Source: Candidatus Woesearchaeota archaeon
Lineage (GTDB): Archaea; Nanobdellota; Nanobdellia; Pacearchaeales; GW2011-AR1
Assembly: GCA_964494915.1 (NCBI GenBank)
Contig: CAZBTP010000005.1
Location: 1-45,734 of the forward strand
Direction of reading: 5' to 3'
Length of the DNA stretch: 45,734 bases
Shown: piece after piece, positions 12,290 to 41,391 of the stretch
Position numbering within the stretch: position 1 is the first letter of the stretch
Layout of the letters: every line of letters starts with the position of its first letter
Position numbers and translations under genes: made by a program
The notes under the pieces: model-generated
The model's input: only the letters and a program-made list of their open reading frames with translations
What the model was told of the DNA's origin: nothing
Databases searched by the model: none

Positions 12290-13255
12290 ATGGAAATTGC
12301 GTTCTTTGAAATTCAGGGCTGGGAAAAACCACTCATAGAAAAGACGCTTAAAGGACATACCATTTCATTCTTCAAGGAACCACTCTCAGAAAGAAACATA
12401 AAGGCAGCACGCAACACAGAGATTATTTCGGTGTTCATTTACTCAGAGTTAACAAAAGAACTTATCGCCCAGCTGCCAAATCTGAGACTAATCGTAACAC
12501 GATCAACAGGGTTCGATCACGTTGATATTGAGGAGTGCAAGAAACGGGACATCATCGTTGCAAATGTTCCTCATTACGGTGAGAACACGGTTGCAGAATA
12601 TACCTTCGCCCTTATCTTATCACTTTCGCGAAAAGTCCACCGTGCCTACTTCCATTCACAACGCAACGATTTTTCTGTCCATAATCTAAAAGGTTTTGAT
12701 CTCAAAGGAAAAACCCTTGGTGTTATCGGCACTGGCAGAATCGGAAAACACGTTGTAAAGATAGCAAGAGGTTTCGACATGAATGTCCTCGCTTATGATA
12801 TCTACCCAAACGAAGCAGCAGAGCGCGAACTTGGTTTTACGTACGTTTCGCTCGTAGAGCTTGTCAAAAAATCAGATATAATAACGCTCCATACATTCTA
12901 CACAAAAGAAAACCATCATTTCATCGACAAAAAAGCCTTTTCGTTAATGAAGAAAGGGGCAATTCTCATAAACACTGCCCGCGGACCTCTCGTTGATACA
13001 AAGGCGCTTGTTGATGCGCTCAATAAAAAAATACTCGCAGCAGCTGCGCTCGACGTTCTCGAAGATGAAACCCTCCTTAAAACAGGAAAGCTTACAAAAC
13101 AAGACAAGCAGCTCCTCAAAAACGAAAACGTTATCATCACTCCCCATGTAGCATTCAACACCCAAGAGGCATTAGAACGTATCATGGCGACAACCGTCTC
13201 AATCATAACAGACTTTACTCATAACACGTTAAAAAGAGAGTGCATTGTTACCTAG
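12290..13255 (+). CDS. D-2-hydroxyacid (D-lactate-type) dehydrogenase
   Basis: RSTGFDHVD, GVIGTGRIG, INTARG, LDVLEDE, TPHVAFNT. Confidence 0.93.
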   Translation: MEIAFFEIQGWEKPLIEKTLKGHTISFFKEPLSERNIKAARNTEIISVFIYSELTKELIAQLPNLRLIVTRSTGFDHVDIEECKKRDIIVANVPHYGENTVAEYTFALILSLSRKVHRAYFHSQRNDFSVHNLKGFDLKGKTLGVIGTGRIGKHVVKIARGFDMNVLAYDIYPNEAAERELGFTYVSLVELVKKSDIITLHTFYTKENHHFIDKKAFSLMKKGAILINTARGPLVDTKALVDALNKKILAAAALDVLEDETLLKTGKLTKQDKQLLKNENVIITPHVAFNTQEALERIMATTVSIITDFTHNTLKRECIVT

Positions 13256-13297
13256 TGTGTTATCTGATTACTTTTATGCACTTGTTTGATCTTTTTT

Positions 13298-13393
13298 ATG
13301 TCAAGGAACTTGACGAAAACCGCACCTTTCAGGGTGCGGTAGGTTCCTTGAGCATCCAAAAAACTAACAAACCACACCTTTTAAGGTGTGGTA
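13298..13393. mobile_element. Paired IS200/IS605-end-like hairpins (putative non-autonomous element)
   Basis: ACCGCACC-TTTCAG-GGTGCGGT inside TCAAGGAAC...GTTCCTTGA; second hairpin ACCACACCTT-TT-AAGGTGTGGT. Confidence 0.5.
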
Positions 13394-13413
13394 AAACTCA
13401 AAGTTTTTTTGAT

Positions 13414-13587
13414 ATAGTTCATTTTAATAATGAAAAGATGAAATCGGGAGGATATAGAATGAAAGCAGCGAGTGGTTTAATTGTATTACTTGCGGGTTGT
13501 CCTATTATAGAACCCCCGACTGGTTCAGAATATGATCCTCCTCCGCGTCCTACCATGCCAACAGTGTATAATCCTCCTCCGCCTCCT
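13414..13587 (+). repeat. About 175-bp dispersed repeat, copy 1 (5' flank, signal peptide, Pro-rich linker)
   Basis: Near-identical to 39140-39313. Confidence 0.9.
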
Positions 13588-14163
13588 ATCACCCCAACAC
13601 AACCCCCACGACAGCCCCCAAATATAGAGATCTCTTTCCATAGCACCACAGGCGTGCCAGGATTAAATACAGTTGATCAAATAGAAAACAATCCTCGCGT
13701 TGCAGGAGTCATAAGTGACCTTGAAAGATTGGGATATAACTTCGCGCTCTATAGCGAACCAGCAATCCATCCGCCAAATATAGAAGGGACGTATACACTT
13801 ACTGGCGAGCAAGAAACTCCTTTCCGAGGCGATATTATCCCAGGAACATTTCACTGGAGTAATCAAACACGAGATAACCATATTACAACAAATTATTCAC
13901 AATTCTTCTCCGGGCTTGAACAGAGAGGGGTAAGCACAGCTGGAGAGATAATCCGTGGCACTGGAAATGGCTTTACAGTTTACTCGATAGTTGATGTTTC
14001 ACAAAATAACGGTTGCGATTTCAGAGGAGTTATTATAATGACTGGAGAAATAACAAACGCAAGAAACATAGCTACAGGACTCTATTGCAGTGCGATACTT
14101 GAGCAGGATGCTCAATGCGGGGCAGTTAGTGCAGCAGGAAGCTTTGTATTAGAGCGGGAGTAA
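13438..14163 (+). CDS. Putative lipoprotein with Pro-rich linker
   Basis: LIVLLAGC lipobox; start set at 13438 by alignment with the paralog starting at 39164. Confidence 0.75.
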   Translation: MKSGGYRMKAASGLIVLLAGCPIIEPPTGSEYDPPPRPTMPTVYNPPPPPITPTQPPRQPPNIEISFHSTTGVPGLNTVDQIENNPRVAGVISDLERLGYNFALYSEPAIHPPNIEGTYTLTGEQETPFRGDIIPGTFHWSNQTRDNHITTNYSQFFSGLEQRGVSTAGEIIRGTGNGFTVYSIVDVSQNNGCDFRGVIIMTGEITNARNIATGLYCSAILEQDAQCGAVSAAGSFVLERE

Positions 14164-18280: not shown

Positions 18281-19126
18281 CTAGATTTCTTTCTGGTCTG
18301 TATTCTCTGAAAACAACTCCTCAAGAGGATTCTTCACCTTCTTTAACTGTTCATGTGAAACATGCGTATACACTTGCGTTGTACTCAACGAAGAATGCCC
18401 TAGCAAGGTTTGTATTATCCGTATATCGGTTCCCTGTTCAAGGAGGTGCGTCGCAAACGAGTGTCGGAGCGTATGGGGTGTAACCTTCTTTCCGATACTT
18501 GCCCTTTTTCTTGCTCCAGCGATAATCTTTTGAATATTCCTCGTTGTTAAAGGTTTCTCTTTTGAAAACAAATAGGTATTTTCCTTCCCACGACCATTCA
18601 AATAGTGCTGCAACTCCAGCGCAAGATCCTTAGACATCATAAACACTCGATCCTTTGCACCTTTTCCATGTCTCACCCATCCGCTTCTCTCGCTCGAGTT
18701 CAGATCACTCACTTTTAAGTTCACCAATTCAGAGACCCTCAATCCAGAAGAATACAACAGGGACATGATCAACCTAGACTTGTGAGTGTCTGCACTGTCA
18801 ATCAAGTGCTTTATCTCTTCCTTCGCTAGCACACTCGGTAGCGTCTTGTCCTTCTTTGGTATTTTAATATTTCCAAATTCTTTTTTCAAAACTTCGACAA
18901 AGAAAAACTTTAACGCAGCAGCGGCGAGCATGATTGTGTTCCGAGATTTAGAATCAAATAATTCAGATAAATATAACTTTACATCACTCTCATTCAACTG
19001 CTCAACTGGTTTATTCACTCGCCCAAGAAACTTCTGAACAAAAAACACATAGTTTCGGACAGTCAAGGGGGAAAATCCTCGCAATCTTAACTCACTCTTC
19101 AGTTGATCAAGAATTTCCATAAACAT
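18281..19126 (-). CDS. xerA: XerA/XerD-like tyrosine recombinase with N-terminal SAM-like domain
   Basis: GLRVSEL, GKGAKDR, HTLRHSFATHLL, LLGH, TTQVYTHV; no IntI-specific insertion visible. Confidence 0.88.
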   Translation of the reverse strand: MFMEILDQLKSELRLRGFSPLTVRNYVFFVQKFLGRVNKPVEQLNESDVKLYLSELFDSKSRNTIMLAAAALKFFFVEVLKKEFGNIKIPKKDKTLPSVLAKEEIKHLIDSADTHKSRLIMSLLYSSGLRVSELVNLKVSDLNSSERSGWVRHGKGAKDRVFMMSKDLALELQHYLNGRGKENTYLFSKEKPLTTRNIQKIIAGARKRASIGKKVTPHTLRHSFATHLLEQGTDIRIIQTLLGHSSLSTTQVYTHVSHEQLKKVKNPLEELFSENTDQKEI

Positions 19127-20449: not shown

Positions 20450-23400
20450 GTGATAAAACTGGATACAACCTTTACAAGGTTAATCTACGTTGGTGTTGGT
20501 ATTTTCTTAGCGATTGTTTTTATAGAACTTGGTCTCAGTGCCACGTGTTGGCAATATACAAGTTCGAATAATGCAAGTTGTACTGCAGCGAACGGTTGCA
20601 TCTGGCGGGCTGATGCTTGGGGTGGATGGTGTTCTGAGTTGAATTGCTGGAGCCTCAACACGCAAAATGCATGTGCAACAACAAGCGTCCCGGGAAAAAA
20701 TTGTACTTGGCAACCAGGTACAACAAATTATTTCTGTGAAGATATAAACTGTTGGAGTTTTTCTGGAACAAATCAGAATGCATGTGAGAGTAATATTGCA
20801 AACAAGTCATGTACATGGGCAAATAATTGTTATAGTACTGGAACAATGGCTGGCTGCAGCGCGTACACAACACAGGCAACATGCACAAATGCGACGGGGT
20901 GTGCATGGGGATTATGTCAAGAGAAGGGCTGCTATGATTATACAACCTCTGCAACCTGTGGCGCGGCGAGAGACTGGAATGGAAGAAATTGTACTTGGAG
21001 TAGTAGTGATAGTAAGTGTAATTATAACAGCTGCTGGAGCACAAAACTCTATCCGAATGAAACTGCGTGTAATGCAGCACAGGGCGTAAAGTGTCAATGG
21101 AAGTGGAATGCCTGCCAAGATGTAGGATGCTGGACTTACGATTTTACGAATGAGACCGCTTGTGTAAATAATACCGCAGGACTTGGGTGTACCTGGACAT
21201 CAGGAAGTTATTGTAGCACAGCCGGTTGTTGGGCCGAAAATACGAATGCGACATGTTCTGCAAAGCCAGGATGTCAATGGAAAGGCTGGACAAGTTCAGG
21301 TTGGTGTAATGAAGTTCAGTGTAGCAATTTCGGATCAATTGGGGGAAGTAATGTATCATTAAATACCACAGGGAATCGGAGTTTGTGTGAATCTAATACC
21401 TATGGTCTAGGTTGTAAGTGGAATGGGGATCCGCCAGGCAATTTAACGAGCGGTTGGTGTTATCAAGAGGTAAGTTCAAAGGCATGCGCGAACTTTACTA
21501 CTGAGCGTAATTGCGTTGATACGCACTATTGTTGGTGGACATTTACAAATACGGCAGATCAAGCAGCCGGAGGAACCTGTAGCGAACCAAGTTGGGGAAC
21601 AGGAGCCTACCAAAACATTTCCTCTATTTCAAATGATTGGAACCCGGGATGCTATCTTTTTGACCTCAATTCAACAAAATGTAATAATGTGCTTGGTTGT
21701 AATTACACAGGCGGAATCTGCAATAAAGTAAGCGCGGGAACCTTTTCTGAATATGGAACAAACATAACTAAGGATGGCATCAAATGTTCCTACATTAACG
21801 ATTCTGCGCTCTGTAACAATATAGCCGCCTTATCAAACTGTTGTGCCTGGCAGAATAGTAGTTGTGTCAACAATCGCTATACGACATCGTGTTTTGATCA
21901 ACTTAAACAGACACCAAACGGAGAAGAAGCATGTGAAGATGCAGAGACAAAAGGAGACTGTGACACGATTGCAGCAGATCCGTGGTATATGCCATGTACG
22001 TGGAATAATGTTAGTGATCGATGTTCATTTAAGGCTACGTCGGTATTTGGCAATACAACCCAAAGTTTGATTAAATTAGAGAACGAGCGTAATTGTGAAG
22101 CGGCTGGCGGCAAATGGATTACTGAGAATTATTGTGTAGGAAATATCTCAGTGCCGACAGGACGATGCGAGTACAAGTTTAATGACGAAGATGATTGTGA
22201 CAAAGCCTGTTTCGCATGTGAGTTAAAAGACGGTAATGGCAACAAGGTGAATGCAACAAATGCGCGAAGCGCTTGTGTTGACTCTTTGTTAGGATTCTGT
22301 GAGTTTACTGTTAATACGCGCGCGCCCAATGGAATAGGATATTGTAAGGCAAAGGAGACATGGAGAACAGGAACAGCAGGCGATTGTAATACGAATTGTG
22401 GTGATTGTACATACAAAGGAGATCCATCGAATAATGATACAACAAGACGACCAAGTTACTATTGTACACAGAGTGACGCAAACAAAGATGGAGGGGGATG
22501 TAAATGGATTAGTGATAATAGTACAACACAAGGAGGATATTGTGCCAAGAAAGGTGAGAAGACGTGCGAGGATGCATGCGATCGATGTAAGGCACAGAGC
22601 GAATGTGCAAGCCTCGGACGAAAGGCTATTGCAAATCAAACAGGAAGTTGTAAGTGGCAGGGAACAACGAACGATGGCAGCTGTGTTGCAAATACGGGAG
22701 AAGAAGTAGAGATCTGTTGGAATGGGGGGGATGATGATGACGATGGATTAATTGATTGTAGCGATCCTGGATGTTATGTAGATTCGTACTGCGGACTCGT
22801 CTCAGGAGATTGTTTTGGATGGAAGAATAATAATACCTGCCTCTCAAATAGTTGCGAGTGGGTTGTCGATAAGTGGGGAAGCTGGTGTGATTTTAAGGGA
22901 GGGCAGTGCTGGAAGTACGACCGAAATGAGAGTGAGTGTGCTGGACAAACAAATTGTGTTTGGAACAATGGAACAGGAAGTGGATGGTGTGAGCGAGACT
23001 GGGATATTGCTGAAACATGCATGGGAAACAACAGAACACTATGTAATGCCGACACAAATTGTGTCTTTACTAATGATACTTGGTGCGATGGGTTTGGAAA
23101 GGGTGGTGATTGGTGTAATACAATGGGCGGATGGTGCGATCATAAAGACTTTGCTCCAAAGAATTGCTGGCAGAAATCCAATAATGCAACCTGTAGCACG
23201 ACCACAGGATGCAACTGGAAAGTTGATCAGTGGAGTAAGCAACATTGTGAAGTAAACTGGAGCGCGAATTGCTGGCAGTACGTAAATTCGACAAACTGTG
23301 CTACCTCGTCATTGTGTATGTGGAGAAATGAGACTTATGGGGCTTATAACTCTGCATGGTGCGATAGCATTATGGGCGAGTGTTGGAGTGTATCAACCCA

Positions 23401-26179
23401 GAGTGCATGTAGTGCAAAAGGAACGAAATGCTCATGGAGAAATGAATCTTGGGGGGGTTACTGTCAGCCTGCCTGCTTCAATACAACACTTGATTCCTCA
23501 GCGAGCGAGTGTGGCGCTGTTTCGAGTTGTGTCTGGAAAGCTGAGAATGGATGGTGCGAAGAGTCTGCAATGACCGCATGTGCAAACTCAACGAGTACAA
23601 ATAATCAAACATTGTGTGACGCAACAAGCGGCTGTCAATGGAATAATCCTGGATGGTGTAATCCAAAGGGAGGATTTACCTGTGGATCAACCTCTGGTGG
23701 AGGGGGAGTTAGCGCCTCTGCAGGGGGTGATTGTTACAAGTACGATGGCAATGAAACATTATGTACAAACAAAACAATCATTAATACGAGCTGTGGTTGG
23801 ATTGTGAATTCTCAGCCTACATGTCAAATTGACTGGAGTAAGGATTGTTGGAAGTATACAAGTGTCGTAGGAGGATGCAACTCAACAAATGGATGTTGGT
23901 TTAAGAATGATTCAATCGGTTCATACTGCACAAATGTCATGGATCAGTGCTGGTTAAATACGACCCTTATTGCTAATGCGACAGCGTGCAACCAAAACGC
24001 CTACTGTAATTCAACACTTTACGGATGTGAATCGACCTGTTATTCAGCACCATCACAGACACAAAGTGCATGTGTTGGAGTAGCTGGTTGTCGGTGGAAT
24101 AGTGGATGGTGTAATCCATCTTCGGTAAGTCAACTTTTTGATACAATGGAGGCAGGAGCGCCAGTACCTTTGGGAGGTGATCCGTGTGGGCCTCTTGGCG
24201 GAGTAAACGAGCCAGCGCAACAATCTGTCGATATTTGCGGATTCGGTATGAAAGACATGGGCGATGCATACGGCTTCGGTGCGAATATGTATGACTTTGG
24301 TAATGCGTCGGTGTGCAATAAAGAAAAGATCTCTTCCTTTGTAGTTGGTCTTGTAGGAGGGGCGTTTAACACTTCTGCTGCAACTGAGAAAGTAGGAGCA
24401 GGCAATGATACAGTAATATTGTTGGTCTATCTTGACACTGATGGAAAATCAACAGGCGGATGTGAACTCAGTCATAATAGTTCTGCTGAAGGTTACGAAT
24501 TTAGGTTTAAGTATGCATCAATTTGGAATGTAAGCACCAACAAACCCCTAGAAACATTTAACGCATACAAGTGCGACAATTCGAAATGGACTGCAACAGA
24601 TGTAAAGTTAAGTACATGGAAGAAATCAATGTGCTCTGAGATTGGTGGTCCGCTTATTGCAGTTGAGAAAGCAGATCTTGCACGATTCCCAACGCTCTAC
24701 GATGCAACAAAAGACATGAGGGTCTCTATAGCAACAATAGGACATATATCAGGAAATGTAACCGACCCATCAGACAGGGCTGGACCGAGTTGGGTAACAC
24801 CGGGGTCTGTTGATTTTGAGATTACTGATGTGTTCTCCTATAATGCTGATGCCGCAAAGTTCGAAGATATCCTTAGACAAGGATTTGTGAAGTACGAAGA
24901 TTGTTTCAATAGTTTAGATGATGATAGTGATGAAAGTATTGACTGTAACGATTGGGACTGTCAGTATGCTTCAGTATGTAGCGGGAAGGGTGTTAATTCA
25001 ACTGGCTTTAATGACACGACCACGGCCCGCGTAGTAGGGGTAAAGATCGAGGAGTATCCAGATGCTGCGTTACTCATGTATGACACGGACAAACCAACAA
25101 ACGGCACACTTGAATTTTACAAGAATGACTCCCGTTGTCTAAAATTGAATGACACGATACATGATATGGGTATAACAAGTGCAAATGTACGCGACTATAA
25201 ACTCTGGCACATCGCGGAGATCTATAATGGGAGTGTAACTAATAATCTTGAGTATCCATTGATTAACGATACTACCTACTACTATAAGCTCCGTGTATGT
25301 GATGCTAGCAACAAATGCGCACTGAGTAAGTGTAGCTCATTTACCACATCCTCGACAGCGAAGTGTGGCTATTGTAATTTCGTTGCGCGATTAAAGGTCT
25401 CAACTGGATGGAACGTTTCATATGACTTTGAAAGAGACGGAACATACGAAACTGCTCAAGGAGAGCAGTGTGGCGTGACAGCGGGTGTAAAGGGCAATTA
25501 CACGACAGGGAGAAGGGTAAATATCAAGATGGAAAAAACAGATAAAACGATTTACTTTGAATTCCTTAATGCAAGCCTCACAAAGACAGGATTGAATGAT
25601 AAAGTACGTTCAATTAGTGATAGTGGTGCTGTTATCGGAACCTCGACACTTGTTGGACTTTCATCAGAAACGCGGGATAAGATTATTAATAGTTTACACC
25701 CTGAGGCATGTAGAATTAAAATTCCATTCAGTGAGACGTGTAACGCACTCTTCCATTGCGATGATAGTGGCGCAAACTGTGTTGATAGAACCTCCTCTGC
25801 AACACTGATTGATGCAGTAAACTGTGTCTGGCAGATTCCAGACTGTGAGTTCTCAACCTATCGAGAATCAACCTCAAGTGGAAGCAGTGGAGGATCAAGT
25901 AGTTCAGGCGGTGGTGGAGGATCTGGCGGAGTGTCAAAGAAGAAGACAGCTAACGCCACTCAAACTGGGGAGGGCTACACAGCCCCAGGAGAAACTCAAC
26001 AACAAGAAACGAGTGGAGGTACAGCAGAAGGAGATCGAGGAGTTCCCCAATTCTTGCCAGAAGAAAGAGAGGGAAAATCCAGTGTATTCTTCTGGGCAGT
26101 TATAACGCTCATACTCGTCGCTGTTGGCGTTGCTATCGTATACATCAAGAGGTCTTCTAGAGTACGAAAATTTAGGTAA
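20450..26179 (+). CDS. Giant Cys/Trp-repeat membrane-anchored surface glycoprotein (1,909 aa)
   Basis: Signal peptide, many C-W..C..CxW..C repeats, two D-rich DCxD loops, Ser/Gly linker, C-terminal TM plus basic tail, many NxS/T sequons; SD GAGGTG at start. Confidence 0.9.
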   Translation: MIKLDTTFTRLIYVGVGIFLAIVFIELGLSATCWQYTSSNNASCTAANGCIWRADAWGGWCSELNCWSLNTQNACATTSVPGKNCTWQPGTTNYFCEDINCWSFSGTNQNACESNIANKSCTWANNCYSTGTMAGCSAYTTQATCTNATGCAWGLCQEKGCYDYTTSATCGAARDWNGRNCTWSSSDSKCNYNSCWSTKLYPNETACNAAQGVKCQWKWNACQDVGCWTYDFTNETACVNNTAGLGCTWTSGSYCSTAGCWAENTNATCSAKPGCQWKGWTSSGWCNEVQCSNFGSIGGSNVSLNTTGNRSLCESNTYGLGCKWNGDPPGNLTSGWCYQEVSSKACANFTTERNCVDTHYCWWTFTNTADQAAGGTCSEPSWGTGAYQNISSISNDWNPGCYLFDLNSTKCNNVLGCNYTGGICNKVSAGTFSEYGTNITKDGIKCSYINDSALCNNIAALSNCCAWQNSSCVNNRYTTSCFDQLKQTPNGEEACEDAETKGDCDTIAADPWYMPCTWNNVSDRCSFKATSVFGNTTQSLIKLENERNCEAAGGKWITENYCVGNISVPTGRCEYKFNDEDDCDKACFACELKDGNGNKVNATNARSACVDSLLGFCEFTVNTRAPNGIGYCKAKETWRTGTAGDCNTNCGDCTYKGDPSNNDTTRRPSYYCTQSDANKDGGGCKWISDNSTTQGGYCAKKGEKTCEDACDRCKAQSECASLGRKAIANQTGSCKWQGTTNDGSCVANTGEEVEICWNGGDDDDDGLIDCSDPGCYVDSYCGLVSGDCFGWKNNNTCLSNSCEWVVDKWGSWCDFKGGQCWKYDRNESECAGQTNCVWNNGTGSGWCERDWDIAETCMGNNRTLCNADTNCVFTNDTWCDGFGKGGDWCNTMGGWCDHKDFAPKNCWQKSNNATCSTTTGCNWKVDQWSKQHCEVNWSANCWQYVNSTNCATSSLCMWRNETYGAYNSAWCDSIMGECWSVSTQSACSAKGTKCSWRNESWGGYCQPACFNTTLDSSASECGAVSSCVWKAENGWCEESAMTACANSTSTNNQTLCDATSGCQWNNPGWCNPKGGFTCGSTSGGGGVSASAGGDCYKYDGNETLCTNKTIINTSCGWIVNSQPTCQIDWSKDCWKYTSVVGGCNSTNGCWFKNDSIGSYCTNVMDQCWLNTTLIANATACNQNAYCNSTLYGCESTCYSAPSQTQSACVGVAGCRWNSGWCNPSSVSQLFDTMEAGAPVPLGGDPCGPLGGVNEPAQQSVDICGFGMKDMGDAYGFGANMYDFGNASVCNKEKISSFVVGLVGGAFNTSAATEKVGAGNDTVILLVYLDTDGKSTGGCELSHNSSAEGYEFRFKYASIWNVSTNKPLETFNAYKCDNSKWTATDVKLSTWKKSMCSEIGGPLIAVEKADLARFPTLYDATKDMRVSIATIGHISGNVTDPSDRAGPSWVTPGSVDFEITDVFSYNADAAKFEDILRQGFVKYEDCFNSLDDDSDESIDCNDWDCQYASVCSGKGVNSTGFNDTTTARVVGVKIEEYPDAALLMYDTDKPTNGTLEFYKNDSRCLKLNDTIHDMGITSANVRDYKLWHIAEIYNGSVTNNLEYPLINDTTYYYKLRVCDASNKCALSKCSSFTTSSTAKCGYCNFVARLKVSTGWNVSYDFERDGTYETAQGEQCGVTAGVKGNYTTGRRVNIKMEKTDKTIYFEFLNASLTKTGLNDKVRSISDSGAVIGTSTLVGLSSETRDKIINSLHPEACRIKIPFSETCNALFHCDDSGANCVDRTSSATLIDAVNCVWQIPDCEFSTYRESTSSGSSGGSSSSGGGGGSGGVSKKKTANATQTGEGYTAPGETQQQETSGGTAEGDRGVPQFLPEEREGKSSVFFWAVITLILVAVGVAIVYIKRSSRVRKFR

Positions 26180-26640: not shown

Positions 26641-26803
26641 GCGGGGATTCCGGAGTGGTCAAACGGGCAGGACTTAAGATGTCAATCGTTCCAACAAGAA
26701 TGATCAAAGCTCAGGATCCATTGAACTTAGAACCTTACTGCAAGGTTGTAGAAGAAATCCTGTGTGCTTAGTGCCTTCGGAGGTTCGAATCCTCCTCCCC
26801 GCA
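26641..26803 (+). tRNA. tRNA-Leu(UAA) with 78-nt intron at 37/38 (intron 26679-26756)
   Basis: GCGGGGA/TCCCCGC acceptor stem; CAGGA-CTTAAG | A-TCCTG anticodon arm split by the insert; GGTTCGAATCC T-arm; relaxed BHB; TATA upstream. Confidence 0.93.
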
Positions 26804-36440: not shown

Positions 36441-37322
36441 ATGCAAAATCAGGAAATAAGTAAATTACTAAATATCCCATTTAATAGAACCTGTAAATGT
36501 GTAGGTAATCGTATAAACTGTCTAACGGCAAAAGAATGGTTAAAAAGTCAAATTGGTGTTTGGCAATTTTTCTATGAAAAAAGAGATATTAGAGACAAAG
36601 AGGTTCATCCTGCTACATTTCCAATTTCATTATCTACTAAAGTCATTGAATTATTTACTCATAAAGGAGAATTAGTTTTAGACCCTTTTGTAGGGAGTGG
36701 TACAACGCTGATTGCCGCACAAGATATTGATAGGTCTGCTGTCGGTTTTGATTTGCATAAAAAGTATATTGATTTATGTAAAAAAAGATTGTCAACAACA
36801 CGTCTTATGGGCACATCAAAACAAGTTGCTTTGATGGATGATGCACGAAACATCAATTCCTATTTAGAGAACGAATCAGTTGGTTTAATCTGGACATCTC
36901 CGCCTTATGCAAATCTATTAAACCGGCCAAGAAAGAATAAATCACGTAGAGACAGAGATAATAGACAACTTGGCAAAGTAGAACAATATTCACAAGACCC
37001 AAATGACCTTGGTACATTAGAGCTGGAAGAATATACTCAAGCTATGGGTGATATTTTTGAGAAATTACTACCTCTTCTCAAACCAAAGGGGCATTGTGTA
37101 ATAAACGTTCCAGATATGTGGTGGGAGAATAAAAGAATAACAATACACATTGCGTTGGTTGAAGAATTAAGAAAACGAGGTTATGAACTGCGAAACATAA
37201 TAATTTGGGACAGAACCAATGTTGTAAATGGAATAGGTATTTTTGGTTGGCCAAGTAATTACATCACCATGGGAGTTACATTTGAATATTTACTTGACTT
37301 CTGGAAACCTCCAAAAAATTAG
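36441..37322 (+). CDS. DNA amino-methyltransferase (N4-C-type SPPY)
   Basis: HPATFP, VLDPFVGSGTT (motif I) preceding TSPPY (motif IV). Confidence 0.92.
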   Translation: MQNQEISKLLNIPFNRTCKCVGNRINCLTAKEWLKSQIGVWQFFYEKRDIRDKEVHPATFPISLSTKVIELFTHKGELVLDPFVGSGTTLIAAQDIDRSAVGFDLHKKYIDLCKKRLSTTRLMGTSKQVALMDDARNINSYLENESVGLIWTSPPYANLLNRPRKNKSRRDRDNRQLGKVEQYSQDPNDLGTLELEEYTQAMGDIFEKLLPLLKPKGHCVINVPDMWWENKRITIHIALVEELRKRGYELRNIIIWDRTNVVNGIGIFGWPSNYITMGVTFEYLLDFWKPPKN

Positions 37323-37330
37323 GCGAAAAT

Positions 37331-38116
37331 ATGACTCAAACATATACGAAAGAAAAACTTATCGAAAAATTGAAAGAGATTCGTGCTAAAGGATGGATTG
37401 AAAACGCACGTCCCGGAAATGTTGGTGGAATAGGAAATACAGTTGAGGATATTCTCGGAATAAAGGAAAATAACCTTCCAATTCCCAATGCGGCTGAGTG
37501 GGAGTTGAAATGTCAGAGAATTGGAAGTTCTTCATTAACCACTTTATTCCATATGGAACCTTCACCACGAGCCTTGAATATTGTTCCTAATATTTTGTTA
37601 TTGAAGTATGGTTGGAAACATGAAGAAGCAGGTAAAAAATATCCCACAAACGAAATGAGTTTCAGGCAGACTATACATTGCTTATCAAGAAGCGACAGAG
37701 GATTCAAAGTAGTCGTTGATAAGAATTTAAAGAAGGTATTGGTCTCCTTTGATTCAAGTTCGGTTGAGGAAAGACATAAAAAGTGGCTGAAAACAGTAAG
37801 TAAAAGAATCGGTTTGAAAGAGTTGGAACCGCAACCATATTGGGGTTTTGACGACTTATTTCATAAAGCTGGAACAAAGTTGCTTAACTGTTTCTTTCTT
37901 CAAGCAAAAGTAAAGAAGGAAGGAGAAAAAGAACATTTTCTCTATGAAAAAATCTTAATGTTGAAAAAATTCAGTCTGGATAAATTCATTAAAGCTATTG
38001 AAGAAGGCGTCATTCTAGTGGATTTTGATGCCAGAACATGTCATAATCATGGAACAAAGTTTAGAATGAGGCAAGATAAATTACCTGTACTTTATGATCT
38101 TGTCGAAACAATATAG
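37331..38116 (+). CDS. MvaI/BcnI-family type II restriction endonuclease
   Basis: GGIGNTVEDILGIKENN, WELK, TTLF, HNHGTKFR; directly follows the MTase. Confidence 0.85.
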   Translation: MTQTYTKEKLIEKLKEIRAKGWIENARPGNVGGIGNTVEDILGIKENNLPIPNAAEWELKCQRIGSSSLTTLFHMEPSPRALNIVPNILLLKYGWKHEEAGKKYPTNEMSFRQTIHCLSRSDRGFKVVVDKNLKKVLVSFDSSSVEERHKKWLKTVSKRIGLKELEPQPYWGFDDLFHKAGTKLLNCFFLQAKVKKEGEKEHFLYEKILMLKKFSLDKFIKAIEEGVILVDFDARTCHNHGTKFRMRQDKLPVLYDLVETI

Positions 38117-39139: not shown

Positions 39140-39313
39140 ATAGTTCATTTTAATAATGAAAGGATGAAATCGAGAGGATATAGAAATATAAAAGCAGCGG
39201 GTGGTTTAATTGTATTACTTGCGGGTTGTCCGTTTGCAGAAGACCCGACTGGTTCAGAATATGATCCTCCTCCGCGTCCTACTACGCCAACAGTGTATAA
39301 TCCTCCGCCTCCT
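39140..39313 (+). repeat. About 175-bp dispersed repeat, copy 2
   Basis: Near-identical to 13414-13587. Confidence 0.9.
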
Positions 39314-39823
39314 GTAGTCATACGTCCTACTACGCCTCCTACCACGCCAACACAGACCCCCCCGACCCAAATCACGCCAACACAATTCTTAGCAATCCCG
39401 GGAGGACACTACTACGGGGAAAATCTTAGAGTCGACGGTTACTCAAGGTTAGGTGATCAAGTACTGTTCGAAAACCATACGAATGACGGACTTAAGAGTA
39501 TATCTTTTGATAGTGACGGATTTCCACTGAACTATGATGACAAACTCCAACGCGAGGTACGCATCTATCCAGGCTATTTCGAAGAGTCAGAAGATGATCT
39601 ATTGACTGTAAAAACTATCAAAACAGGAGTAAACACTCATATAGACTACGATATAAAATTCTTCCTCGGGGATGGCAAAGTCTTCGGAGAAGGGACAGTC
39701 ACAGAAGACTTTATTCTCCAAAGTAATAAGACACTCTACTACGTCGGAAAGAGCAGAATAGTGACAGAGATAGAGGGAGAAATCATAAGCGAAGTCGAGG
39801 GAGTATTATACAAGGGGAACTAA
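39164..39823 (+). CDS. Putative lipoprotein with Pro/Thr-rich linker
   Basis: LIVLLAGC lipobox; PTGSEYDPPPRPT shared with the gene at 13438. Confidence 0.75.
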   Translation: MKSRGYRNIKAAGGLIVLLAGCPFAEDPTGSEYDPPPRPTTPTVYNPPPPVVIRPTTPPTTPTQTPPTQITPTQFLAIPGGHYYGENLRVDGYSRLGDQVLFENHTNDGLKSISFDSDGFPLNYDDKLQREVRIYPGYFEESEDDLLTVKTIKTGVNTHIDYDIKFFLGDGKVFGEGTVTEDFILQSNKTLYYVGKSRIVTEIEGEIISEVEGVLYKGN

Positions 39824-40059
39824 CACCATCCCGCTAAAAATGGAAATGGGCCCCCTTATACTTTTCTGTTCATCCCTGGACTGTGCTATCAAACTTCCCT
39901 TTAAAAAGTCCGTAATTGCTTAGCTTTCTAAAGCTCCGATGATAAAAAACTACTGATTTTTTGCTAAATTTCATCCTTATAGACGATAGTTACTTTACAA
40001 AGCTCCTATGAGAATTCTATAATCGAAAAGCTTAAATTGTTTTTAAGCTTTATTGTGAT

Positions 40060-40196
40060 ATAAAACATACGACATACTCCTATTCGTGGTCTAAGCCACA
40101 CTATGATAAGTCGTTGTAATGTTTTATTTTTGAGAGGAGGCTCTAATCTAAGTAACGATTTCGAAGAGTCATAGCTTTGTCCAGAGTCCTCCTTTC
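40060..40196 (-). ncRNA. Predicted IS110 bridge RNA (target- and donor-binding loops)
   Basis: Two stem/internal-loop/stem hairpins downstream of the recombinase; loop strands match the flanks and the end junction; RNA ends not determinable. Confidence 0.8.
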
Positions 40197-40212
40197 ATCC
40201 ATCATAGGACCA

Positions 40213-41205
40213 TTAATATCTGAATTCTTCTTGATTCTTGAGCATAGCATAGATAACACAACACAATTTTCTTGCGGTTGCACAAATTGCTTTTTGCTTT
40301 CCTTTTTTCTTTGCAAGTTTTTTATAAAATTCCTGCAAAGGGTTGCTTTCTTTTGTCCTCACAATATTCCAGCAAGTTTCTATAAAAGTTGTTTTCAAAA
40401 CTTTGTTTGCTTGTCTGATCAGTTTCCCAAATCGCAAGGTGTTCCCAGATTGGTGGATACTTGGCACCAATCCTGCATAACTACAAAGTTTATCTGCCTT
40501 CGGAAATCTCTCAATTTCTCCGATTTCTGCAATAATATCCAATGATCTTGTTGTACCAATTCCAGGAATTGTCATGAGTAATTTTGCATTTTTGTCAGTA
40601 CAAGATTTTTCTGCAATTGATTTGTCTATTTCTTCTAACTTGTTTTTATGATACTCTAACAAGTCAAGATAGTGCAAGATTATTTTATCATCTGGAAATT
40701 TTTCTCTTATCCACAATATTGCGCTCTCGCATAAAGTTGCATAACCAAGTTCAACTCCTCTTTTTATCAGAATTGCGTGAATTTTATTTTTGATCTGTGT
40801 AGTCTGTTTTACAAATGTTCTCCTTTCCCTTGTTATTTCACGCAATCTCCTAACATCTTTTGGAGGAATGTAACTCTCTGCAATTAGATTTGCTCTTAGC
40901 AAATCTGCCAAAGTTGATGCATCAACCGAATCCGTCTTTATCCTTGCTTCTGCAATTGCTCTTGTTCTTGACGGATTTGCAAGTTTAACTTCATACTTCT
41001 TAGCTTCAAGAATTTCATAGATATATTCCCAAACACACGTGCTTTCAATAACAACTTTAGTTTCTTCTGGTTTGAATCGCTGCATAAAACTTCCAAAGTT
41101 GTTTTCACTATTTGTGAATTTATCCTCGGCTAACTTGTTTCCTTGCTCATCTTTTACAACTGCAACAGTAAACTGTTTGTGTATATCCATTCCGATATAG
41201 TTCAT
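40213..41205 (-). CDS. IS110 family recombinase/transposase
   Basis: DEDD: IGMDIHK, VVIES, KTDSVDA; IPGIG; SYAGLVPSIHQSG; SD AGGAGG. Confidence 0.96.
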   Translation of the reverse strand: MNYIGMDIHKQFTVAVVKDEQGNKLAEDKFTNSENNFGSFMQRFKPEETKVVIESTCVWEYIYEILEAKKYEVKLANPSRTRAIAEARIKTDSVDASTLADLLRANLIAESYIPPKDVRRLREITRERRTFVKQTTQIKNKIHAILIKRGVELGYATLCESAILWIREKFPDDKIILHYLDLLEYHKNKLEEIDKSIAEKSCTDKNAKLLMTIPGIGTTRSLDIIAEIGEIERFPKADKLCSYAGLVPSIHQSGNTLRFGKLIRQANKVLKTTFIETCWNIVRTKESNPLQEFYKKLAKKKGKQKAICATARKLCCVIYAMLKNQEEFRY

Positions 41206-41391
41206 TTTCTTTTGCCTCCTTTCAGCTAATAACTGCTGATTAAAGCTTTCAGCTTTAATCTAATTTTCTAGAATTCTCATATCATCTAAGTAGACACCCT
41301 TTATAGCTACTATAATACAAGAATGACTCCCCGAATTTTCTGTAAAAAAAGTAACCTAAATTAAGGACTTATTTTAAAAAGCCGCCAGAAC

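Follow-up and report, generated by a model that had tools for sequence, protein, structure and literature searches.

The question raised by the 45,734-nt contig CAZBTP010000005.1 of a Candidatus Woesearchaeota archaeon (assembly GCA_964494915.1; the whole contig is called the window below) is whether the insertion sequence located at positions 40005–41285 encodes, downstream of its recombinase gene, an RNA that directs the element to its insertion site. A first-pass annotation had read a bridge RNA with four guide sequences from the minus strand of this element, and all of its coordinates and sequence words recurred to the base in the analysis presented here. The 1281-bp element belongs to the IS1111 type of the IS110 family, and we put the probability that it is an intact and probably active member of this group residing in an archaeal genome at roughly 0.88. 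RNA-guided insertion of the element into a motif repeated between genes is very probable.

Boundaries and class of the element

On the plus strand, the left flank (39997–40004) reads ACAAAGCT, and the element then starts with CCTATGAG at 40005. Its other end, TATCAT (41280–41285), is followed by the right flank CTAAGTA (41286–41292). The core dinucleotide, CT on the plus and AG on the minus strand, adjoins each end of the element once (40003–40004 and 41286–41287), and one of these copies is derived from the target, the other being carried by the element. As had been proposed, removal of the element restores the plus-strand sequence ACAAAG-CT-AAGTA, and the boundaries agreed with the uninterrupted site found in another genome of the same genus.

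The sole long open reading frame (ORF) of the element occupies 40213–41205 on the minus strand. The N-terminal part of the encoded protein matched DEDD_Tnp_IS110 (PF01548, E = 1.8e-26) and the C-terminal part Transposase_20 (PF02371, E = 9.3e-22), both of which passed the curated cutoffs, and the NCBIfam model NF033542, “IS110 family RNA-guided transposase”, gave 249.9 bits against a cutoff of 140. Full-length phmmer alignments were obtained with the solved structures of IS621 (chain 8wt6_A, E = 1.4e-17) and ISCro4 (E = 3.3e-14). By alignment only, D7, E54, D92, D95, and S253-G254 fell on D11, E60, D102, D105, and S241-G242 of IS621, the residues named as catalytic in the text of Hiraizumi et al. 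(PMC11208158). Residues 245–254 (GLVPSIHQSG) match the motif GL-P----S(t)G, which is given for IS1111 transposases in the text of Siddiquee et al. (PMC11187229) together with a length of 330–350 aa. The 330 aa of the recombinase, initially regarded as notably compact, thus represent the usual size of these proteins, and this property had been overrated.

The noncoding DNA of the element is divided into 80 nt upstream and 208 nt downstream of the gene, and the ends carry subterminal inverted repeats of 13 bp. According to the text of PMC11208160, the subterminal inverted repeats of the IS1111 group are 7–17 bp long, and the text of PMC11187229 places the longer noncoding region of these elements downstream of the transposase gene. 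Since the 13-bp repeats and the 80/208-nt split are IS1111-type traits, the element was assigned to this type, which, together with the Pfam domains and the GL-P----SG motif, confirmed the original classification.

Four guide words in the 3′ noncoding region

The 208-nt region contains two predicted stem-loops on the minus strand, each with two guide words in its internal loop. In the target-binding loop, the word at 40180–40173 is ACAAAGCT, the same as the left flank at 8/8 positions, and the word TACTTAG at 40154–40148, when reverse-complemented, gives the right flank CTAAGTA at 7/7 positions. In the donor-binding loop, TATCAT (40108–40103) equals the last six bases of the plus-strand right end (6/6) and continues with AG instead of CT, while ATAGGAG (40083–40077), read as its reverse complement, consists of CT followed by the five bases that open the plus-strand left end (7/7). 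Hence, the statement that all four guides are readable, with the target loop corresponding to both flanks and the donor loop to both ends, proved correct. In element orientation, the donor-loop matches cover 6 nt at the start of the left end and, together with the core, the final 5 nt of the right end. In the same orientation, the 5′ target guide can pair with the top strand and the 3′ guide with the bottom strand, which is the order known for the IS1111 seekRNAs, where the top-strand match is located 5′ of the bottom-strand match (text of PMC11187229), and the reverse of that of the IS110-type RNAs (text of PMC11208160).

Both target words co-occurred in 18 of 200,000 shuffles of the 208-nt noncoding region. 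In the whole window, ACAAAGCT is present three times, and TACTTAG twice, solely as flank and loop. The predicted fold of a 211-nt minus-strand segment reached −57 kcal/mol compared with −37.1 ± 4.0 kcal/mol for shuffled sequences (z = −5.0), a value equaled by none of the 200 shuffles.

In the mechanism proposed here, the signatures were observed in the sequence and every step is adopted by homology with studied systems. The element would leave its site as a circle, the ends of which are joined through the 2-nt core, and the noncoding region 3′ of the recombinase gene would be transcribed into a guide RNA of approximately 150–190 nt carrying the two stem-loops. The first internal loop would bind the target across the core, the 5′ side of the loop pairing with one DNA strand ahead of the core and the 3′ side with the opposite strand beyond it; the internal loop of the second stem-loop would pair likewise with the joined ends of the element. 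The RNA-bound DEDD/Ser recombinase would then exchange strands at the core and thereby insert the element. The preferred target is predicted to be a short dyad-symmetric intergenic repeat, ACAAAG-CT-AAGTA on the plus strand.

Other copies and the target repeat

The window is contig C5 of a 49-contig assembly of 1.01 Mb, which is 91.8% complete, and further junctions of the element were found at the ends of other contigs. Contig C22 ends with a left junction, the flank of which shares its last 12 letters with the left flank in the window, and C48 with a right junction, the flank of which shares CTAAG. The end pieces at these two contig ends and at that of C16 were 100% identical to the element and stopped at its boundary bases. 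The first-pass annotation had named deviating boundaries or unrelated targets in other copies or empty sites as the observation that would speak against it; the C22, C48, and C16 junctions start with 4–12 of the same target letters, and the element withstood this check in both the other copies and the empty site of the same-genus genome. A 110-nt remnant on C39 (C39:2197–2306, L002:1501–1610), 90% identical to the element, consists of the left end and the first codons and has a different flank after the core. A protein search in 30 related genomes, where such repeats are often unassembled, found the recombinase in 1 of 18 same-genus genomes (a partial match at a contig end) and in 0 of 12 genomes of other genera.

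The 13-letter target occurs at 27 sites of the genome within 2 mismatches, and eight of these sites, which share wider flank similarity, all lie outside ORFs of at least 80 aa. One of the eight, an unoccupied copy (39917–39929) with 2 mismatches, is located in inverted orientation 80 nt from the insertion. Shorter versions of the dyad motif are present in at least eight intergenic places of this genome. In the same-genus genome G015 (L114:1501–1601), an 81% match to window positions 39904–40004 continues uninterrupted through the core into letters resembling the right flank. The matching unit of approximately 100 nt stands beside different genes in G015, and the full unit was found once per genome in both this and the own genome; it may be a site resembling a miniature inverted-repeat transposable element (MITE) or a repetitive extragenic palindrome (REP), or a regulatory site. 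The target motif might be an archaeal promoter: at two of its copies, a start codon follows 27 nt after a TATA-like word, but other copies lie between convergent gene ends.

Four DNA sequencing runs of one study (X1–X4) contain 0.70–0.77 of the sampled words of the window and may include the source sample; thus, they are not independent support. In contigs assembled from these runs, the C22 and C16 junctions recurred and at least two further right flanks diverged right after CTAA(G); at least four different right flanks are present in the community contigs. The summed depth inside the element was several-fold that of the flanks, which is not to be read as a copy number. Neither an empty-site joint skipping 40005–41285 nor a contig bridging the element was seen in the assembled contigs of the four runs, which means little for contigs. 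A variant co-occurring in the contigs of X1–X3 differed from the window by nine substitutions and three indels, all within 40153–40180, that is, in the target loop. No other difference was listed for it between 40123 and 40210, further differences followed from 40211 on, and its summed depth was above that of the window variant.

These data also bear on the reading that the copy is a structurally intact but immobile relic, whose guide–flank match records a past insertion only. Such a relic would agree with the one full copy assembled, with the remnant on C39, with the lack of both an empty site and a circle junction in the four runs (assembled contigs only), and with the presence of the protein in 1 of the 18 other same-genus genomes searched. 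Nevertheless, we consider it improbable, since the reading frame is open and keeps all predicted catalytic residues, the stems and guides are fully intact, at least two more sets of junctions in the own genome are 100% identical over 36–50 nt, and the community contigs contain at least the four right flanks mentioned above.

Covariation of guides and flanks among relatives

The protein search yielded 1667 homologues, the best 120 clusters of which were all at least 61% identical, many of them on contigs of 1.2–1.4 kb. The DNA of relatives was taken from 27 loci on genome contigs and from 80 loci retained out of 202 on metagenome contigs. Altogether, the right-end motif was present in 68 of the 108 sources (the window and L006–L112), 65 of which were parsed and 60 were distinct, while L060, L097, and L105 were left unparsed. 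In the case of L051, the script took an upstream motif with 2 mismatches as the left end, and the resulting left-target score of 0 was kept in the counts. The closer relatives on genome contigs are labelled Woesearchaeota, Pacearchaeota, and Nanoarchaeota, and the more distant ones are bacterial. Relatives with approximately 38% identity (L015, L016, and L019) have other end motifs and were read by eye.

The guides were compared with the flanks at the non-core positions only. The 3′ target guide matched the left-target flank of its own locus at 4.38 of 5 positions on average (perfect in 35 of 52 loci) versus 1.43 in cross comparisons, and the 5′ target guide matched the right-target flank at 5.25 of 6 positions (perfect in 33 of 59 loci) versus 2.90. 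When the two were summed for the 51 loci having both flanks, the own-locus match was 9.61 of 11 compared with 4.42 ± 0.22 after permutation, and none of 10,000 permutations reached it. On the donor side, a C at position 5 of the left end is accompanied by G in the donor guide in all six elements that carry it, and 51 of 53 combinations can pair. Column identity amounted to 0.84 in the stems and 0.83–0.88 in the donor loops, compared with 0.41–0.54 in the target guides; that is, the scaffold is conserved and the target loop is hypervariable across relatives. The family-wide covariation supports RNA guidance.

The structure was conserved as well. RNAalifold predicted four helices from 57 distinct relatives, so that each loop has one outer and one inner stem, with compensatory changes in 13 of 23 pairs, and the four guide words fell in unpaired internal-loop columns of this consensus. 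The target stem-loop has an outer stem of 9 bp and an inner stem of 4 bp, and compensatory changes were found in 9 of its 13 pairs. When the terminator-like hairpin was added, 97.1% of 1700 cells could pair, compared with 87.2% in shuffled alignments (0 of 500 reached the observed value) and 31–47% when partners were slid; both sides had changed in 16 of 30 pairs and the covariation score was 0.350 versus 0.154. The fold, its compensatory stems, and the guide words in the 208-nt region thus bore out the placing of a bridge RNA 3′ of the recombinase ORF, for which a folding and covariation analysis had been suggested. A pairing between the start of the noncoding region and the right end, present in the single-sequence fold, was not kept in the 57-relative consensus, and a local 5′ hairpin fits better by eye.

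Covariation between loops and flanks and compensatory changes in stems cannot by themselves separate an RNA from single-stranded DNA, and the guides might act as DNA, with the element end pairing with the target as a folded single strand, like the guide sequences of IS200/IS605. No transcript was seen, which is neutral either way, as the sequencing runs found were DNA only. Two invariant G-U pairs (GU in 55 of 57 rows and UG in 57 of 57) are valid only on the gene-sense strand; therefore, an RNA is favored over a DNA structure. Moreover, the two loops are followed by a terminator-like hairpin and a T run, the protein is homologous over its full length to IS621 and ISCro4, whose solved structures include bridge RNA, and, according to the text of PMC11187229, IS1111 transposases co-purify with RNA of the noncoding region. 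On these grounds, guides acting as DNA are highly unlikely. It is hardly credible that the recombinase reads target and ends by protein–DNA contacts, the loop matches being by-products of end–target similarity: the right-end repeat motif is almost invariant in the 57 relatives, such subterminal repeats could well be protein-binding sites, and the target itself is a dyad repeat, but recombinases 57–89% identical occupy unrelated targets predicted by their variable loops, the loop words are unlike the element's own ends, and both target words co-occur by chance as rarely as stated above.

Core and neighboring positions

The core dinucleotide itself, read in element orientation, was AG in 44 loci and TG in 14. 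The target-loop core equaled the donor-loop core in 58 of 59 loci, and both loops and both flanks agreed in 44 of 60. The 5′ donor guide continued with AG or AA in all 64 parsed loci, independently of the core dinucleotide. The other three of the four guides read the core. The AG found in place of CT after the left donor guide of the window, which the first-pass annotation had pointed out, therefore recurs in every parsed relative, and the missing core pairing of this guide characterizes the family rather than marking a defect in the window copy.

On the 3′ side of the donor loop, the nucleotide immediately following the core agreed in 35 of 57 loci with the first target nucleotide past the core at the right-end junction, compared with 16.4 ± 3.1 after permutation (0 of 20,000 permutations reached this number). 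The second nucleotide agreed in 25 of 57 loci versus 17.8 when permuted (419 of 20,000), and no other flank position stood out for the donor-loop nucleotides after the core in these 57 loci. In the target loop, the letters following the 3′-side core (AUU) correspond to the two letters with which the left end begins; they are ACU in two loci, where the left end starts with AC, and this co-change may be a single evolutionary event. It was also considered whether the variable nucleotides beside the donor guides extend the outer stem or the pairing with the left end, but this was inconsistent by eye, and the 3′ pair fits the target instead. By sequence, the positions after the core appear to behave like the handshake guides of IS621, which are described for IS621 and IS110 orthologues, and not for the IS1111 type, in the text of PMC11208158, PMC13626964, and PMC13604230.

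Several points weigh against RNA guidance of an active element. Only one full copy was assembled, and the others are deduced from end pieces of 36–50 nt at contig ends; among these, the right junction of C16 shares CTAA, and only 5 of 7 of its letters match the right-side guide. The empty site in G015 contains one extra G, and its likeness to the right flank ends after approximately 12 nt. No circle back-joint was present in the assembled contigs of X1–X4, where rare forms are dropped. In two of the 51 relatives (L006 and L007), neither flank fits the guides of the same locus, and eight further ones are weak on one side. At gathering thresholds, the only Rfam matches anywhere in the window were two tRNAs, and no family matched the guide RNA. 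All four guides of IS621 pair with the core (text of PMC11208160), unlike one donor guide of the window element. Finally, expression, RNA–protein binding, the circle, and activity are inferred by analogy.

The two misfits deserve a closer description. The flanks of L006 fit the guides of L007 and L050, and L006 itself carries guides like those of L036. It is possible that guide RNAs act in trans between co-resident variants, or that loops were exchanged between copies. The right junctions of L006 and L050 are without the expected second copy of the core, and the guide-predicted target directly follows the end of the element, as if 2 nt had been lost or not duplicated. At L052, where AA follows the end, a changed right end and a shifted register were found instead.

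Comparison with known systems

The IS1111 seekRNA elements ISEc11, ISKpn4, ISPa11, and ISPst6, as described in the text of PMC11187229, resemble the window element in the DEDD transposase of 330–350 aa and its motif, in the subterminal repeats and the long 3′ noncoding region, and also in the guide order, the overlapping matches at the insertion point, and the sequence-specific targets differing among relatives. The comparison was based on published descriptions, and the present host differs in being an archaeon with a 1-Mb genome. Furthermore, the text of PMC11187229 describes target matches, whereas the window element also has a clear donor-reading loop. The best match in plasmid records of cultured organisms, from haloarchaea, was 38% identical; since the nearest plasmid proteins are only this similar, the clade is distant from the studied members. 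Bridge RNAs have been predicted in 93% of the IS1111 elements in ISfinder (text of PMC11208160).

With IS621 and ISCro4 (text of PMC11208160 and PMC11208158), the window element shares target and donor internal loops, each reading both strands around a 2-nt core, as well as the catalytic residues. In plus-strand reading, the core CT is also that of IS621, and the 5′ sides of the loops correspond to the left halves and the 3′ sides to the right halves. The nucleotides directly adjoining the core-reading 3′ guides on their 3′ side agree with the other DNA partner, in the manner of handshake guides. Unlike in IS621 and ISCro4, the RNA is encoded after and not before the gene, gene and RNA are reversed relative to the recombination site, and the subterminal repeats are long. 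A genome-repeated short dyad-symmetric intergenic repeat as target is also reminiscent, as far as these are described in the texts available, of the repeat-homing IS110 elements, that is, IS621 and ISPpu9 in REP sequences and IS4321/IS5075 in terminal repeats of the Tn21 family. In the window, two inverted copies bound the unit of approximately 100 nt, which may be REP-like, MITE-like, or regulatory; the single finding of the full unit in this genome and in the same-genus genome sets it apart from those repeats.

That the host is archaeal, as the first reading had it, agreed with the much higher scores of six ribosomal and RNA-polymerase proteins of the window on archaeal than on bacterial NCBIfam models; the gene order in the window is S13-S4-S11-RpoD … L13-S9. 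As a surprise, the archaeal origin counts for less, because the text of bioRxiv 10.1101/2024.06.21.599552 already reports 662 archaeal IS110 recombinases, whose phylogeny is mixed with that of bacterial homologues. These share the archaeal hosts with the present element and, unlike here, are treated there as proteins. The term “DPANN” is absent from that text. The archaeal ISHvo9 and ISHvo10 are named in the text of PMC11187229. Among the full-text literature retrieved for IS110 and DPANN, no article concerned guide RNAs by its title or the start of its abstract, and “bridge RNA” is absent from the text of PMC13343696.

Significance of the archaeal clade

The RNA-guided IS110/IS1111 class has been known since 2024, the NCBI family name itself contains “RNA-guided”, and the mechanism is unchanged by the window element. 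What is new is a well-documented archaeal clade of RNA-guided IS110/IS1111 recombinases with at least 120 protein clusters at least 61% identical, mostly from DPANN-type metagenome genomes, along with the co-change of the core (AG/TG) in loops and flanks, the handshake-like positions, and the donor guide that lacks core pairing family-wide. The approximately 60 natural guide–target pairs could be used to train or test rules for IS1111-type guides (core choice AG/TG, guide lengths, and handshake positions), and compact orthologues from cold, low-nutrient habitats, as yet untried as genome-editing tools, can be drawn from the clade. As regards the host, the element points to a family of repeats accepting insertions in its 1-Mb genome.

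More tentatively, and with less than even confidence, the DPANN-type clade may be viewed as a natural library, in which the recombinase, the donor loop, and the ends are fixed and the target loop is freely rewritten, RNA variants act in trans, and the handshake positions and strand-exchange geometry of IS621 hold for IS1111-type elements as well, with only three core-reading guides. Co-resident RNA variants may thus serve any copy in trans: two relatives sit in sites fitting the guides of another variant instead of their own, and a second target-loop variant co-occurs with that of the window in the same samples.

Features of the element and other genes in the window

Table 1. Features of the insertion sequence and its insertion site (window positions)
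Feature	Position	Strand	Basis
Whole insertion sequence	40005–41285	−	Identical end pieces stopping at the boundary bases on three contig ends of the own genome; uninterrupted site in a same-genus genome
Left end (element orientation), 80 nt: 4-nt terminal extension, inverted repeat, hairpin, and ribosome-binding site	41206–41285	−	Read from sequence and relatives
Left-end subterminal inverted repeat, 13 bp, set in 4 nt	41269–41281	−	Reverse complement of 40007–40019
Conserved left-end hairpin	41240–41258	−	Arms co-change in relatives, by eye only
Ribosome-binding site GGAGG	41215–41219	−	Sequence reading
Recombinase/transposase gene, 330 aa; predicted catalytic D7, E54, D92, D95, S253-G254	40213–41205	−	Pfam, NCBIfam, alignment with IS621
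Small 5′ hairpin right after the stop codon, tentative	40197–40210	−	Hairpin with differing arms in relatives, by eye; absent from the RNAalifold consensus
Target-binding stem-loop; 5′ guide 40180–40173; 3′ guide including core 40154–40148, then AUU	40132–40196	−	Consensus fold, flank matches
Donor-binding stem-loop; 5′ guide 40108–40103; 3′ guide including core 40083–40077, then 2 variable nt	40062–40125	−	Consensus fold, end matches
Terminator-like hairpin, then T run	40026–40050	−	90% of cells paired and double changes in 3/7 pairs in relatives
Right end (element orientation): 2-nt extension and 13-bp subterminal inverted repeat (40007–40019)	40005–40019	−	Reverse complement of 41269–41281
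Host intergenic unit holding the target, bounded by inverted copies of a short dyad motif	39913–40004		Repeat search; 81% over 101 nt in a same-genus genome

Left of the element, the ORF at 39164–39823 has a Pro/Thr-rich region and no Pfam match, and its first 150 nt (39164–39313) are 89% identical to 13438–13584 inside the ORF 13240–14163. A type II restriction–modification pair (36441–38116), 2 kb away from the element, consists of neighboring genes encoding a DNA methylase (N6_N4_Mtase) and a restriction endonuclease of the MvaI/BcnI family. A 1909-aa ORF at 20450–26179 gave no Pfam match at E 1e-5. One of the Rfam tRNA calls (26641–26803) spans 163 nt and was unreported by ARAGORN, which would be consistent with a long intron in the tRNA gene. 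A tyrosine recombinase gene of 281 aa, with Phage_integrase and SAM-like N-terminal domains, is located at 18281–19126.

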